Shown here: piece by piece, positions 4,308-29,618 of the stretch
How the letters are laid out: the number at the start of each line of letters is the position of its first letter
Position numbering within the stretch: the stretch's first letter is position 1
Assembly (NCBI GenBank): GCA_028292065.1
Contig: JAQGNC010000477.1
Span: 1 to 29,619, forward strand
Length of the DNA stretch: 29,619 nucleotides
From: Betaproteobacteria bacterium
Lineage (GTDB): Bacteria > Pseudomonadota > Gammaproteobacteria > Burkholderiales > SG8-41
Direction of reading: 5' to 3'
Notes under the pieces: model-generated
The model's input: the letters and a program-made list of their open reading frames with translations, nothing else
The model's database searches: none
Told to the model about the DNA's origin: nothing
Made by a program: the position numbers and the translations under genes

Positions 4308-5336
4308 GTGTCTTCCTCATCTAGAACGTTTGCGCTGTGCGTGTTCGCGGTTGTGCTTGCCGCGGGCTGCGTATCCAATCGCCCCGCGCCTGTGGTCGAG
4401 CGCGCGGTTCCGGGCCGGCAGAGCGCGCCGGTCGCAGCCTCGCCCATCCCGCCTTCCGGAAGCCGTCCGGCGCCTGCGCGTAGCGCCGAGTCGCGGCCCG
4501 ACTCGTATACGGTCAAACCCGGAGACACCCTTTACAGCATCGCGCTCGAGCACGGCCTCGACTATCGCGAGCTCGCGCTGTGGAACGGTCTCGACAACCC
4601 CGGCGCGCTGAAAATCGGGATGCAGCTGCGCCTGTCAGCGCCCGGTGCAGTGGCCGGCGCACCCGGCGCAGTCGTCGCGGCGCCGCTGAGGATGCCCGGC
4701 GGCAGCGTGGAAGCGCGCCCGCTCGGCACCGGTCCCTCACCGGCGCCGTCCGCGGCAGCGCCTGTTGGCGGCGCAGCCGCTTCGGGGACGGTGCTGACCG
4801 AGCCCAAAGGGGTGCGCGTGCCGTATTCCGAGCAGGCGCTCGCGCAGGTCGCGAGGCCTGAACCTGCCGCGCCCGCACGAACCGAAACCCCGAGAGCGGA
4901 AGCGCCGAAGGCCGCCGAAGCGCGTGCAGACGCGAAAGCCGAAGCGGGCGACGCCGCGCGCGGCCCTGAAGACGTCGACTGGTCGTGGCCGGTCAAAGGC
5001 AAGGTCATCGGGACTTTCAACGACGCGTCGAGCAAAGGCATCGCGATCGCCGGCAAGCTCGGTCAACCGGTGCTCGCGAGCGCGCCGGGCAGGGTCATCT
5101 TCAGCGGGACCGGCATCCGCGGCTTCGGCAAGCTCATCGTCATCAAGCACAACAACACCTACCTGAGCGTGTACGCGCACAACAGCGAGCTCAACGTGAA
5201 GGAAGGCCAGTCGGTGACCAAAGGCCAGAAGATCGCCGAGATGGGCAGCACCGATGCCGACCAGGTGAAGCTGCACTTCGAAATCCGCCGCTTCGGAAAA
5301 CCGGTCGACCCGGTCAAGCTCCTGCCGCCTGCTTGA
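4308..5336 (+). CDS. nlpD: NlpD-like lipoprotein (LysM + M23 domain)
   Basis: Lipobox LAAGC, LysM YTVKPGDTLYSIA, Pro/Ala linker, M23 region WSWPVKG, YAHNS, LHFEIR. GTG start at 4308 inferred; the ORF is open from 4272. Confidence 0.92.
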   Translation: MSSSSRTFALCVFAVVLAAGCVSNRPAPVVERAVPGRQSAPVAASPIPPSGSRPAPARSAESRPDSYTVKPGDTLYSIALEHGLDYRELALWNGLDNPGALKIGMQLRLSAPGAVAGAPGAVVAAPLRMPGGSVEARPLGTGPSPAPSAAAPVGGAAASGTVLTEPKGVRVPYSEQALAQVARPEPAAPARTETPRAEAPKAAEARADAKAEAGDAARGPEDVDWSWPVKGKVIGTFNDASSKGIAIAGKLGQPVLASAPGRVIFSGTGIRGFGKLIVIKHNNTYLSVYAHNSELNVKEGQSVTKGQKIAEMGSTDADQVKLHFEIRRFGKPVDPVKLLPPA

Positions 5337-24921: not shown

Positions 24922-25899
24922 GTGAAATCAACGACATTACGCGTGTGCGGGTTCGCCGTCGCGCTGGCTGCCGCGTTCGCCGGCGCCGCCGCCGCACAGA
25001 GCTACCCTGCGCGCCCGGTGCGTCTGATCATCCCCTTTTCGCCGGGCGGCGCCGCCGACGTCCCCGGCCGCATTCTCGGCGATCGCCTGACCAAGGTGCT
25101 CGGGCAGCAGGTCGTCATCGAGAACCGCCCCGGCGCGGGCTCGACGATCGGCGCCGAAGCCGCGGCCAAATCGCCGCCCGACGGCTACACCCTGTTCATG
25201 ATCAGCAACACTCATTTCGTGAGCGCAGGCCTCTACAAGAAGCTCACTTACGATTCGCTGAACGACTTTACCCCGATCACCCAGATCACCGCGGCGCCGA
25301 ACATCCTCGTCATTCATCCTTCGCTTCCCGCGAAGAACGTGAAAGAGCTGATCGCGCTCGCGAAATCGCGGCCGGGGCAGATCAATTACGCGTCATCGGG
25401 CAACGGCAGCACCCAGCATCTGACCGGGGCGCTCTTCTGCAAGATGGCCGGCATCAACATGACGCACATCCCGTATCGCGGCAGCGGTCCGGTCACCGCC
25501 GACTTGATCGGCGGGCAGGTGCAAGTCGGGTTCCCGGGGATCGCCGGCATGCTGCCGCACATCAAGGCCGGCAAGCTGCGCGCGCTCGGCATCAGCAGCG
25601 CGAAGCGCTCCCCCGAATTGCCTGACGTGCCGACGATCGCGGAAGCGGGCGTCAAAGGCTACGAGATGGTCGCGTGGTTCGGTATCGCGGCGCCGAAAGG
25701 ACTGCCGCGCGAGATCCAGACGCGCATTCACGGCGATCTGCTCAAGGTGCTCAAGACACCCGACATGCAAAAGAGCATGAGAGACGTCGGCCAGGAAGTG
25801 GCGTACCAGGAAAAACCCGAGCAGTTCCACGACTTCATGAAAGTCGAAGCCGCGAAGTGGGCGAAGGTGGTGCACGAGAGCGGCGCCAAAGTGGAGTGA
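24922..25899 (+). CDS. Bug / TctC family tripartite tricarboxylate transporter substrate-binding protein
   Basis: Signal peptide ending AAAQ-S, YPARPVRLIIPFSPGG, VVIENRPGAG, PPDGYTL, YASSGNGS, HIPYRGSGP, LPDVPTIAEAG. Confidence 0.95.
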   Translation: MKSTTLRVCGFAVALAAAFAGAAAAQSYPARPVRLIIPFSPGGAADVPGRILGDRLTKVLGQQVVIENRPGAGSTIGAEAAAKSPPDGYTLFMISNTHFVSAGLYKKLTYDSLNDFTPITQITAAPNILVIHPSLPAKNVKELIALAKSRPGQINYASSGNGSTQHLTGALFCKMAGINMTHIPYRGSGPVTADLIGGQVQVGFPGIAGMLPHIKAGKLRALGISSAKRSPELPDVPTIAEAGVKGYEMVAWFGIAAPKGLPREIQTRIHGDLLKVLKTPDMQKSMRDVGQEVAYQEKPEQFHDFMKVEAAKWAKVVHESGAKVE

Positions 25900-25901
25900 C
25901 G

Positions 25902-26129
25902 ATGAACATTTCTGCGACGATCGGAGTCTTTGCGGCGGTCGTATTCGCCACGGTATGCGCAGGCTTTGCCGTGACCGGCTTCATGTCTCTCGGATCGATG
26001 ACCGATCCGGCGCAGGCCGCCGACGCCCGAGGCTTCTCGTGGTTCTGGACTTTTCTCGGCGCGGTCGCCGTGGTATTCGGCGCGGTCTCGTTGTGGATCG
26101 CTCGCACCCAAGCGGGCAGGGATGCATGA
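25902..26129 (+). CDS. small hypothetical membrane protein (75 aa, 2 predicted TM helices)
   Basis: ATG 2 nt after the Bug stop with GGAG upstream; two hydrophobic segments (IGVFAAVVFATVCAGFAVTGF and FSWFWTFLGAVAVVFGAVSLWI). Confidence 0.7.
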   Translation: MNISATIGVFAAVVFATVCAGFAVTGFMSLGSMTDPAQAADARGFSWFWTFLGAVAVVFGAVSLWIARTQAGRDA

Positions 26130-26281
26130 GCCTATAGTTCGTTCAGTGCATGGAAGAGGCTTTCTGATGAGCGAATCGCCCATCTGATCGCCGATGCGCG
26201 GACTGCTTGACGAACGTGTTCCGTCGCACGGCCGCATTATCCCGCTCGCGAGCGCCCGCCGCGTCCCGCATTCGCGTTCCC

Positions 26282-26316: not shown

Positions 26317-27744
26317 ATGTACGAAAAACTAGCGATGTATATCGACGGCGCGTTCGTCGAAGCCGAAGGCCGCAAGACCGAGCCCGTGGTGAACCCCGCC
26401 AGCGGTGAAGTGCTCGGCCAGTTGCCGCACGCGAGCCGCGAGGATCTCGATCGCGCACTGGCCGCCGCGCAGCGCGCTTTCGAAACGTGGAAGAAGTCGT
26501 CACCGCTCGATCGCTCGGCGATTTTGCGCAAAGTGGCCGAGCTCGCACGCAGCCGAGCACAGGACATCGGGCGCAACATCACGCTCGACCAGGGCAAGCC
26601 CCTCGCCGAATCCATCGGCGAAATCATGGCGTGCGCCGAGCACGCCGAGTGGCACGCCGAAGAGTGCCGCCGCATCTACGGGCGCGTCATACCGCCGCGC
26701 CGCCCCGACGTGCGCCAGTTCGTGCTGCGCGAGCCGGTCGGGGTGTGCGTGGCGTTCACGCCGTGGAATTTCCCGTTCAACCAGGCGATCCGCAAGATGG
26801 TCGCGGCGATCGGCGCGGGTTGCACGCTCGTCCTCAAGGGACCCGAAAGCTCGCCGAGCGCGGTCGTCGCGCTGGCGCGTCTCTTTCACGATGCCGGCCT
26901 CCCGCCGGGTTGCCTCAATATCGTGTGGGGTGTTCCCGCGGAGATATCGGACTACCTGATCAAGTCGCCGATCGTGCGCAAGGTTTCGTTCACCGGTTCG
27001 ATACCGGTCGGCAAGCAGCTCGCGGCGCTCGCCGGCGCGCACATGAAGCGCGGGACGTGGGAGCTCGGCGGGCATTCGCCGGCGCTCGTCTTCGATGACG
27101 CGGACGTCGATCAGGCCGCGGTCACCCTCGCCAGGCTCAAGATACGCAACGCCGGGCAGGTGTGCGTATCGCCTTCGCGCTTTTACGTCCAAAGCAGGAT
27201 CTACGATCGCTTCGCCGCCAAGTTCATCGAGACGATCAAGGCAATCAGCGTCGGCAACGGCCTCGACAAGGCGACGCAGATGGGCCCGCTCGCGCACGCG
27301 CGGCGAGTCGACGTCATGCAGGCTTTCGTCGAAGACGCGGTGTCGCACGGGGGCGAGATCGTCACCGGCGGCACGCGCCTCAAAGGGTCGGGATTTTTCT
27401 TCCCGCCGACGGTCATCACCGGTCTTCCCGACCACGCGAAGCTCATGACCGACGAGCCTTTCGGTCCGATCGCGCCGCTGGTGCCGTTCACCGATCCTGA
27501 AGACGCGATCCGGCGCGCGAACAGCCTGCCTTACGGCCTCTCGTCCTACGTCTTCACCGAATCGCTGAAGACTGCGACGTATGCGGCGAACGCGCTCGAA
27601 GCCGGCATGGTGAACATCAACCACTTCGGCATCGCGCTGTCGGAGACGCCATTCGGCGGGGTCAAGGATAGCGGCATCGGCAGCGAGGGTGGAACCGAAA
27701 CCTTCGACGGTTATCTCGTCACCAAATTCGTGACGCAGGTCTGA
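26317..27744 (+). CDS. NAD-dependent aldehyde dehydrogenase, succinate-semialdehyde / 2-oxoglutarate-semialdehyde (AraE-like) type
   Basis: [21 protein letters not shown] (catalytic Glu), NAGQVC (catalytic Cys), [14 protein letters not shown]. Substrate cannot be determined from sequence alone. Confidence 0.9.
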
Positions 27745-27769
27745 TTCGCCCTTGGACCGAAGGTCAGAA

Positions 27770-27796
27770 TGGATGCTGGCCTTCGCCAGCATGACG
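27770..27796. repeat. single CGTC-tagged REP unit
   Basis: TGGATGCTGGC-CTTC-GCCAGCATGACG; same family as 13983-14009. Confidence 0.75.
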
Positions 27797-27806
27797 TAGA
27801 GGCGTG

Positions 27807-27821
27807 CGGCACGTCGGTTGC
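27807..27821 (+). promoter_or_regulatory. putative sigma54 (-24/-12) promoter
   Basis: CGGCACG-TCGG-TTGC versus consensus TGGCACG-N4-TTGC; GG at 27808-27809 and GC at 27820-27821 with exact N10 spacing. Confidence 0.65.
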
Positions 27822-27833
27822 CTCTACCACGAC

Positions 27834-27920
27834 GGTGACCCGATCGGTGTTTCATGAAATGTCCGGCTCGGGGTGACCAGAGTCCGGGGTGGCCCACACC
27901 CGCCCCGGACTCTTTCTTTC
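27834..27920 (+). ncRNA. candidate sigma54-dependent small RNA (~87 nt)
   Basis: Hairpin 1 (27834-27878) begins at the predicted +1; hairpin 2 (27879-27913) is followed by TTCTTTC. No convincing CDS lies between promoter and terminator. Confidence 0.5.
27879..27920 (+). terminator. Rho-independent terminator
   Basis: AGAGTCCGGGG / CCCCGGACTCT 11-bp stem followed by a T-rich tract. Confidence 0.75.
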
Positions 27921-27970
27921 GTGCAGCGCTCGCTCCTCCGCCTTGAACCAAACGTCCGAAGTCTCGCGAC

Positions 27971-27983
27971 GGGGTCGGACCCC
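27971..27983. repeat. GGGGTC-N-GACCCC palindrome
   Basis: GGGGTCGGACCCC, nested inside CCAAAC...GTTTGG just downstream of the recQ stop. Confidence 0.5.
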
Positions 27984-28007
27984 GGTTTGGATACAGGCGA
28001 CGCGGAC

Positions 28008-29618
28008 TTACCCGCGGATGACTGAAAGCACTGCCGGCCCGTAGCGCTCGAGCTTCTTCGCGCCGATGCCGCTGATGGTGCCGAGCGCGTCGAGGTCTTC
28101 AGGTTGCTCGGCGGCGATCGCCGCGAGGGTGCTGTCGTGGAAGATCACGTACGCGGGCACCGACTGCTCGCGCGCTTCGGTCGCTCGCCACGTTTTGAGG
28201 CGGCCGAGCAGGGCTTCGTCGGCGCCTGCGGGAAGCGCCGCCTGGACACGACGGCGCGACGCGCCGCGCGCGCGGGCGACGGTGCGCCGCATCTGGACGG
28301 GGGTCTCGCCTTTGAGCACCGGGCGGCTTTGTTCTGTGAGGCGCAGCGCACCGTAGGCGTCGTGATCGGGTCTCGCAAAACCGAGGGCGACGAGCTGGCG
28401 AAACACGTTGCGCCACGCGTCGTCGTCGAGATCGGCCCCGATACCGAAGACGCTGAGCTTGTCGTGCTCCCATTGCGTCATGCGATCGGTCGTGCGGCCT
28501 CTGAGCACGTCGATCAGGTGTCCCGCGCCGAAACGCTGGCCGGTGCGATACATGCACGAGAGCGCTTTGCGCGCGGCTTCGGTCGCGTCCCAGGTCTCGG
28601 GCGGCTCCAGACACGAATCGCAGTTGCCGCACGGCGCCGACGGTTCTCCGAAATACTCGAGCAGCCGCACGCGCCGGCACGCCGCGCTCTCGCACAATCC
28701 CAGCAGCGCTTCGAGCTTGCTCATCGACACGCGCTTGTACGCGTCGCTGCCTTCGGACTGGTCGATCATGCGCCGCTGCTGGACCACGTCGCCGAGGCCG
28801 TAAGCCATCCACGCGTCCGCAGGCAGCCCGTCGCGGCCGGCCCGGCCGGTCTCCTGGTAATAGCCTTCGATGCTCTTGGGCAGGTCGAGGTGCGCCACGA
28901 ATCGCACGTCCGGCTTGTCGATTCCCATGCCGAACGCGATCGTCGCCACGACGACGATCCCGTCATCGCTCTGGAAGCGCGCCTGATGCCTGCTGCGGCT
29001 CGCGGTATCCATTCCGGCGTGGTAGGGCAGCGCGCGCACGCCCTGCGTCGCGAGCCACGCCGAGGTCTCGTCGACTTTCTTTCGCGACAGGCAGTAGACG
29101 ATGCCCGATTCGCCCGGATGCTCGTCGCGGATGAAGCGCAGGAGCTGGGTGCGCGCGTCGTTCTTGTCGACGATGCGATAGCGGATGTTCGGCCGGTCGA
29201 AGCTCGAGATGAAGACGTGGGCTTCGTCGAGCGCGAGGCGGTGGATGATCTCTTCACGCGTCTGGGGATCGGCAGTCGCGGTCAGCGCGATGCGCGGAAT
29301 GTCGGGGAAACGCTCGTGCAGGAGCGAGAGCTGGAGATATTCCGGTCGGAAATCGTGTCCCCACTGCGACACGCAGTGCGCTTCGTCGATCGCGAACAGC
29401 GCGATCTTCGACTGTGCGAGCGCATCGAGCATGCGCGGCATCACGAGGCGCTCGGGCGCGACGTAGAGCAGATCGAGCTTGCCGGTGCGCAGCGCACGTT
29501 CGGTCTCGAATACCGCCTGCCCGTCGAGCGTCGAGTTGAGGAAAGCGGCGCTCACGCCGAGCTGCGTGAGTGCGGCGACCTGGTCCTGCATGAGCGCGAT
29601 CAGCGGCGACACGACGAG
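28008..29618 (-). CDS. recQ: ATP-dependent DNA helicase RecQ (5' end beyond the window)
   Basis: [72 protein letters not shown], Zn-binding CRR..CGNCDSC, winged helix, C-terminal HRDC (VPAYVIFHD). Confidence 0.97.

Follow-up and report, generated by a model that had tools for sequence, protein, structure and literature searches.

The 263-nt spacer between two converging genes, i.e., an aldehyde dehydrogenase gene and recQ, raised the question of whether it carries an sRNA gene of its own under a sigma54 promoter, as an earlier note on this DNA had proposed. The window, i.e., the whole stretch of 29,619 nucleotides that was analyzed, came from a 4.66-Mb soil MAG of an uncultured Burkholderiales genus (685 contigs, 86% complete). 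The nearest named relative was deposited as 'Betaproteobacteria bacterium RYN_570'. The predicted features and the neighboring genes are listed in Table 1. It is probable that the unit is an independently transcribed, sigma54-dependent sRNA gene. The conserved boxes, their fixed distance to the RNA stem, covariation, independence of orientation, and recovery of the promoter by a promoter-blind search supported the self-contained unit that the note had described.

Table 1. Predicted features of the unit and its neighboring genes, in positions of the window
Feature	Position	Strand	Basis or description
TctC-type carboxylate-binding protein gene	24922-25899		
Aldehyde dehydrogenase gene	26317-27744	+	homologues named succinate-semialdehyde dehydrogenase by sources
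Sigma54-type promoter	27807..27822	+	CGGCACG-TCGG-TTGCC; GG 27808-9 = -24 box, GC 27820-1 = -12 box
Predicted transcription start	27833	+	deduced from sigma54 promoter geometry, 12 nt past C27821 taken as -12
Whole predicted sRNA	27833..27921	+	about 87-90 nt; covariance-model match 27833-27922, 106-113 bits
Hairpin 1	27834..27878	+	fold: 3 bp, 1x1 mismatch, 4 bp, bulge, 2 bp, bulge, 4 bp; variable A/U-rich apex
Intrinsic terminator hairpin	27879..27913	+	fold: 14-bp G+C-rich stem, 7-nt loop
U-rich tail (UCUUUCUUUCG region)	27914..27922	+	read from sequence; predicted transcript end
recQ	28008-29618	-	

The near-consensus -24/-12 motif with exact GG-N10-GC spacing was found where the note had placed it, i.e., CGGCACGTCGGTTGC at 27807-27821, with a gap of exactly 10 nt between GG and GC. 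Compared with the consensus TGGCACG-N4-TTGCW, 10 of the 12 positions were matched. The deviations were C instead of T at -26, before GG, and C instead of A/T at -11, after GC. The C before GG was frequent among the intergenic GGCAC-N5-TTGC matches of the same genome. This 10/10 core match was the only one in the 29.6-kb window. By base composition, GGCACG-N4-TTGC was expected approximately 19 times in the genome and was observed 26 times, and GGCAC-N5-TTGC was observed 62 times vs. approximately 59 expected. The chance of approximately 2e-6 per position given in the note was right in order of magnitude, but at 26 vs. approximately 19 the motif by itself is not rare and is not beyond chance. 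Its significance comes from a spacing control in intergenic DNA and from conservation, not from the motif count.

In the spacing control, the two boxes were kept and the distance between them was varied. In the whole genome, N5 gave 62 matches vs. 21-48 for N1-N4 and N6-N10. In intergenic-like DNA, i.e., DNA selected by a GC3-based ORF test under which 10.6% of random positions count as non-coding, N5 gave 19 matches vs. 0-7 (mean approximately 3) for the other spacings. Many of these 19 matches lay ahead of a ribosome-binding site and a start codon. Sigma54 genes (PF04552) were found at three loci of the genome, i.e., two full-length rpoN genes plus a partial third gene (G000 contigs C443, C415, and C354). 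Enhancer-binding ATPase genes (PF00158) were found at six loci, which means at least six in view of the 86% completeness. Because of the intergenic spacing control and the presence of rpoN and enhancer-binding protein genes, most intergenic GGCAC-N5-TTGC matches in this organism appear to be real sigma54 promoters. A promoter match in a convergent spacer needs support beyond these intergenic statistics.

This support was searched for in relatives. By BLAST of the element, only 1 of 158 other genomes of the family was matched, i.e., G009. The homology extended from the C before GG to just past the U-tract, and both flanks were unalignable. The element was 82% identical between G009 and the window, and the 19-nt promoter block was identical at 19/19 positions; the four-fold degenerate sites of the neighboring dehydrogenase gene were 63% identical. 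The same boundaries were found in six metagenome contigs and one contig of a soil DNA run, and their upstream flanks were scrambled by repeat insertions. In the contigs reached through close dehydrogenase homologues (L197, L231/L232, L233, L235, and L234) and in the soil-run contig, REP-like insertions rebuilt the upstream flank and left CGGCACGTCGGTTGCCTCT untouched.

Across 12 homologous units, GGCA(C/T) and TTGC were invariant, and the spacer between the boxes (TCGG, CACG, CGCG, CGCA, AAGGA-type, and GCAC), the -11..-1 stretch, and the sequence further upstream were variable. The two boxes were present in every relative with the RNA body, so that their conservation was confirmed. Two fixed boxes without compensatory change would be the footprint of a two-box promoter and not of an RNA helix, because a helix would covary. 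The -12 C and the base of hairpin 1 were also a constant distance apart in the members, i.e., 12 in G009 and 11 nt plus one base in the others.

The promoter was also recovered by models that did not contain it. Covariance models were built from the RNA body only (27833-27922 and homologues), and the promoter was left out. The search of 151 family genomes and then 13 genus genomes gave new matches in G012, G001, and G005. All three new members (3/3) had GGCA(C/T)-N5-TTGC, with GC ending 12 nt before the match, i.e., GGCACGCGCATTGC in G012, GGCATAAGGATTGC in G001, and GGCACGGCACTTGC in G005. By composition, the chance of such a motif at a fixed position is approximately 2e-5 per sequence. Four weak model matches in another genus (G123, G133, and G138) had no promoter motif and looked like ordinary terminators.

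Other searches set the range of the RNA family. It was seen in 6 of the 13 species genomes of the genus, a count that includes G011, where only the promoter and hairpin 1 were recognizable, and several of the other genomes were incomplete. No match was found in an order-level sample of 150 genomes, and no unit was found in the recQ downstream regions of 27 other family genomes. The dehydrogenase homologue contigs P0004, P0005, P0007, P0009, and P0011 had other neighbors or no DNA to inspect. A match in G002 lay in a coding region and was attributed to chance. The scan of the metagenomes with one RNA-body 21-mer gave 0 matches, and the scan of the genome collection with one 18-mer of the 3' arm gave chance matches plus G009. 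The promoter 18-mer scan of the metagenomes gave 34 unrelated loci, of which some were evidently sigma54 promoters of other organisms and others were coding. The exact 18-mer GGCACGTCGGTTGCCTCT recurred in unrelated metagenome contigs (L043/L053/L055, the L041/L068 group, L048, and L074). Several of these occurrences had T before GG and lay upstream of apparent gene starts, and they probably represent genuine sigma54 promoters in other organisms. On the genomes searched, the RNA family appears to be confined to the genus.

The RNA body was composed of two hairpins. In the RNAfold prediction, hairpin 1 starts 12 nt past the -12 box with the pair G27834-C27878 and contains one G x G mismatch and single-base bulges. 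The bulged hairpin and its apex palindrome, i.e., TTTCATGAAA at 27850-27859, were as the note had described them. The second hairpin adjoined hairpin 1 with no gap as claimed, but its G+C-rich stem was 14 bp and not 11 bp, with 13 Watson-Crick pairs and one G.U pair followed by UCUUUCUUUCG. The reported U-rich tail was present, and a U-tract followed the terminator hairpin in every member. The folding energy of 27833-27922 was -47.3 kcal/mol (z = -4.4), and 0 of 200 shuffles were as stable. The segment with the highest conservation was the 3' arm of hairpin 1, GGCUC(A/G)GGGUGACC. The best-kept RNA bases were CCGACC in the 5' arm and GGCUCAGGG(U)GACC in the 3' arm, both bulged bases included. 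The apical loop of hairpin 1 differed in every lineage, and the conserved bases were in the stem.

Compensatory changes were found in both helices. In an alignment of only 11 related sequences fitted to the model, 96.7% of cells were paired, and 12 of 27 pairs were changed on both sides. For hairpin 1, the values were 96.3% of cells and 6 of 13 pairs, although four of the double changes came from one sequence and several from single sequences. For the terminator hairpin, they were 97.1% and 6 of 14 pairs. In the shuffle control, 0 of 500 shuffles reached any of five measures, and in the control with the partner moved by 1-3 columns, the pairing dropped to 26-58%. The fold of L199 had the architecture of the window, i.e., 3 bp, 1x1 mismatch, 4 bp, 1-nt bulge, and 2 bp, with four pairs changed on both sides. 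The 14-bp G+C-rich stem, UCUUUCUUU after it, and the compensatory changes at six pairs are those of a Rho-independent terminator.

No conserved ORF was found in the unit among relatives. In the window, a frame of 30 codons starts with the ATG at 27854, but it was absent from G009, and the small-ORF reading was rejected. A CsrA-type GGA motif was found only in G012 and G005 and was not a feature of the RNA family.

The genomic setting of the unit varied. In metagenome contig L199, whose dehydrogenase is 92% identical, and in genome G011, the synteny of dehydrogenase and recQ was kept and the unit was on the opposite strand. These inverted units read GGCACACACGTTGC and GGCACGCGCGTTGC, followed by the hairpin, the junction GUGAC(C/U)AGAG, and the terminator. 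In L198 (dehydrogenase 97% identical, contig cut short), the terminator was also inverted. In three species, the unit was placed behind other genes. G012 had the order TctC (+), unit (+), and TauD (-). G001 had TctC, the unit, and a converging EF-hand protein gene. G005 had a gene without name, the unit, and a co-directional GAF-EAL gene 170 nt on. In most settings, the flanking genes converge and no co-directional gene lies downstream. Because the TctC of G012 was 84% identical to that of the window, the TctC receptor gene appears to be a conserved neighbor of the unit. In the lineage of the window, TctC is separated from the unit by a 75-codon ORF and the dehydrogenase gene. This ORF, at 25902-26130 between TctC and the dehydrogenase gene, was called in all close relatives and had no Pfam hit; its product looks like a small membrane protein.

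These settings bear on the best surviving alternative. The conserved RNA could be the 3'UTR of an upstream mRNA, made by read-through and processing to a shared terminator, and the GG-N10-GC block could be an RNA or protein site unrelated to sigma54. The unit of the window is co-directional with the dehydrogenase gene, no U-tailed terminator was found from the stop codon to 27879, and the units of G012 and G001 lie 5-25 nt past the TctC stop codon. 3'UTR-derived sRNAs are also well known, e.g., GlnZ (PMC9731577). However, the upstream genes differ, i.e., dehydrogenase, recQ, TctC, or another gene, and the units of L199 and G011 lie on the strand opposite to that of the dehydrogenase gene. The two boxes alone were invariant upstream of the stem, and they showed no compensatory change, which fits recognition by protein rather than an RNA helix, and the distance from box to stem was fixed. 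We therefore consider the 3'UTR explanation unlikely. Since the promoter, body, and terminator were retained on inversion, the unit would be a self-contained gene and not merely a dehydrogenase 3'UTR, in agreement with the note.

The second alternative is that the cassette acts mainly as DNA or in cis, i.e., a bound sigma54 holoenzyme and two hairpins insulate or terminate between converging genes, and the short RNA is a by-product. The unit lies between convergent genes in four of the five contexts, and its terminator is the only strong hairpin between the two genes. The terminator of G009 and an opposite half-copy form a two-way terminator, and a mostly closed complex would fit with no detectable enhancer. 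Against these points, the geometry of hairpin 1 is kept by compensatory changes and has conserved bulges, which are needless for a terminator or roadblock. The fixed distance from promoter to stem suggests a defined 5' end, and in G005 a co-directional gene follows the unit. This role is given a small chance only.

The G009 half-copy was located on L108 at about 4385-4470, on the opposite strand just past the unit's terminator (AAAAGAAGAGCCCGGGCGGG). Beyond it, on the - strand, TGGTATGTGCTTTGC kept the GG-N10-GC spacing. The half-copy and TGGTATGTGCTTTGC may represent a decayed second copy placed tail to tail. The two orientations of the unit may descend from such a tail-to-tail pair by differential loss instead of repeated inversion.

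It is hardly probable that the unit is a small mobile or repeat-type element, i.e., MITE- or REP-like, with an incidental promoter-like motif. It occurs in various contexts and in both orientations within one genus, and it lies among the REP-like repeats at 27760-27796 and 27968-27992, which have tens of copies. However, one copy per genome was found in all five genomes matched by the model, and no terminal inverted repeats or target duplications were found at the ends of the unit. The identity of TctC in G012 and the window points to retained synteny and not to transposition. In the source genome, 27807-27920 had no second copy by BLAST or by covariance model, and the REP-like repeats only flank the unit, so that the high-copy dispersed repeat considered in the note did not apply.

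A chance motif beside ordinary terminator hairpins agrees with the genome-wide count of GGCACG-N4-TTGC and with the ready folding of GC-rich spacers, but it is very unlikely on the comparative data, i.e., boxes at a fixed distance in 12 units and at least four contexts, promoter-blind recovery in all three new members, and covariation, and we give it almost no weight.

For the sRNA gene that we prefer, the following mechanism is proposed. The sigma54 RNA polymerase would bind the -24/-12 boxes at 27808-27821, and one of the enhancer-binding ATPases of the genome would open the polymerase complex. Transcription would start at approximately 27833, run through the bulged 45-nt hairpin, and stop at the adjoining intrinsic terminator. 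The predicted product is an RNA of approximately 87-90 nt with its 5' end buried in a stem. By comparison among relatives, selection acts on the promoter boxes, on the constant spacing of promoter and stem, and on both helices, and the cassette behaves as a unit independent of its neighbors. As in sRNA genes, a predicted promoter and terminator of its own, a covarying structure, and no conserved ORF were found. Transcription of the unit is a prediction from comparative sequence data. In three metatranscriptomes of the soil study (approximately 120 Mb each), the element was not covered and a single 151-nt contig was found, inside the dehydrogenase gene, and these data sets were too small to count against expression.

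The predicted RNA would act in trans. The conserved accessible seed of trans-acting sRNAs was not found in it, i.e., the apical loop varies and the conserved bases are in the stem. A seed in a loop would agree less well with the conserved bulged stem CCCGACC / GGCUCAGGG than a protein or chaperone contact or a masked site for pairing. The signal might be a carbon or nitrogen cue, as suggested by the orthologous TctC-type neighbor and, in the window, by the adjacent succinate-semialdehyde dehydrogenase gene.

For the enhancer, no 8- or 9-mer common to the four contexts was found within 350 nt on either side, and only GC-rich 7-mers were shared; degenerate or distant sites would escape this comparison. 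Known sigma54 sRNA promoters have upstream activator sites, and the enhancer of a sigma54 promoter is usually placed 80-150 bp upstream. The absence of a detected shared enhancer is the main weak point of the sigma54 reading. An enhancer can be far from its promoter and on either side of it, and some activators do not need to bind DNA. The motif GTCAC-N7-GTGAC lay approximately 80 nt upstream inside the dehydrogenase gene and was kept in G009, but the coding sequence explains its conservation.

A further-reaching idea is rather unlikely. The unit could be a portable sigma54 cassette of 115 bp, composed of promoter, bulged hairpin, and terminator, that does without a linked enhancer and is activated from solution or from distant sites. 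Its RNA would bind protein via the CCCGACC/GGCUCAGGG stem and would not be a seed-pairing sRNA. The cassette would have been inverted within one spacer, or retained there out of a tail-to-tail pair, and would have spread to the ends of other converging genes.

Few sigma54-dependent sRNAs are known, i.e., GlmY/Z, Qrr, CrcZ/Y, NrsZ, and GlnZ via its mRNA. The unit was compared with these and with Rfam 15 (4227 models, including GlmY/Z, Qrr, CrcZ, NrsZ, and Burkholderia sRNAs), and no family match was found at E up to 10. The best scores were 18 bits for mir-3155 (gathering 70) and 16.8 for RT-13 (gathering 69.1), both on the terminator hairpin only. As in the note, no named family was recognized, and the scan gave only noise on the terminator.

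CrcZ and CrcY of Pseudomonas have CbrB-activated sigma54 promoters. NrsZ of Pseudomonas is cited as a sigma54-driven sRNA in PMC9731577. These NtrC- or CbrB-activated sRNAs resemble the proposed sRNA in being sigma54-driven, in their link to nitrogen or carbon status, and in having metabolic or regulatory genes as neighbors. However, they are much longer and contain repeated modules (NrsZ) or CA-rich protein-binding motifs (CrcZ), whereas the RNA of the window has no such repeats and no Rfam match to them. GlmY and GlmZ of Enterobacteriaceae are transcribed from sigma54 promoters activated by GlrR (PMC3045617). Like the proposed sRNA, they have genes of their own, in which a -24/-12 promoter precedes a structured body that ends in an intrinsic terminator. 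GlmY and GlmZ have upstream GlrR and IHF sites, whereas no shared upstream site was found here. No sequence or structure match to them was found, and the RNA of the window is half their size and restricted to one betaproteobacterial genus.

The Qrr sRNAs of Vibrio depend on LuxO plus sigma54 (PMC10162802). They share with the unit a short length (about 90-110 nt), the terminator end, and copies in varied intergenic contexts. Qrr has a conserved single-stranded seed, upstream LuxO sites, Hfq dependence, and known targets, whereas the conserved segment of the RNA of the window is in a bulged stem, the loop is variable, and no Rfam match was obtained. NcS25 of Burkholderia cenocepacia is an intergenic Burkholderiales sRNA of approximately 84 nt with a terminator common to its neighboring gene. 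It adjoins a porin gene and has a single-stranded anti-SD seed, and its authors found no sigma54 motif upstream (PMC10117139). Its context and architecture differ from those of the unit, and NcS25 was rejected as unrelated. The unit also lies just behind a co-directional coding gene and would share its terminator. In this it is similar to MicL/DapZ-type sRNAs, which are transcribed from a promoter of their own close to the 3' end of a gene. Here, the promoter does not overlap the coding region. Because relatives carry the unit inverted or downstream of other genes, its association with the dehydrogenase mRNA does not define it.

The kind of gene is known from GlmY/Z, Qrr, CrcZ, and NrsZ, and the genus-restricted family appears to be new, with no Rfam match. 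In the literature search, no characterized sigma54-dependent sRNA was found in Betaproteobacteria. If real, the unit adds a non-coding arm to the sigma54 regulon of uncultured soil Burkholderiales. It would also be a very small, well-bounded cassette in which sigma54 promoter activation without an obvious enhancer can be asked, and a first hypothesis on the signal can be drawn from the neighboring TctC-type carboxylate receptor gene.

Several inverted repeats overlapped the promoter. In the window, an 8-bp inverted repeat, GTAGAGGC...GCCTCTAC, at 27797-27827 encloses the whole -24/-12 motif. GCCGTTC...GAACGGC was found in L233 and L235, and GACTGTC...GACAGGTC in G009. They could have arisen by chance, given the GC-rich DNA, could form a hairpin in dehydrogenase mRNA that is read through, or could serve to occlude the promoter.

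Three families of dispersed hairpin repeats were found in the spacer, two of them in the window and a third in relatives. The REP-like repeat at 27760-27796 (AAGGTCAGAATGGATGCTGGCCTTCGCCAGCATGACG; hairpin TGCTGGC-N4-GCCAGCA) had at least 17 copies in the genome and many in relatives of the genus. In L197 and L231, two to three repeats of this type were stacked at the same spot in alternating orientation. The second family, at 27968-27992 (GGGGTCGGACCCCGG hairpin units), had approximately 50 matches in the genome, which often formed tandem arrays of alternating orientation. One extra GGGGTCGGACCCCGG unit was present in relatives, i.e., a 25-nt insertion after 27971 in the soil-run contig. The third family (GGAGGGAAACCAAGGTTTCCCTCC then TTTCCTTTACC) was found in the same spacer of L012 (G011) at 1715-1790 and of L234 at about 2810-2900. 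In G011, it replaces the unit's own terminator.
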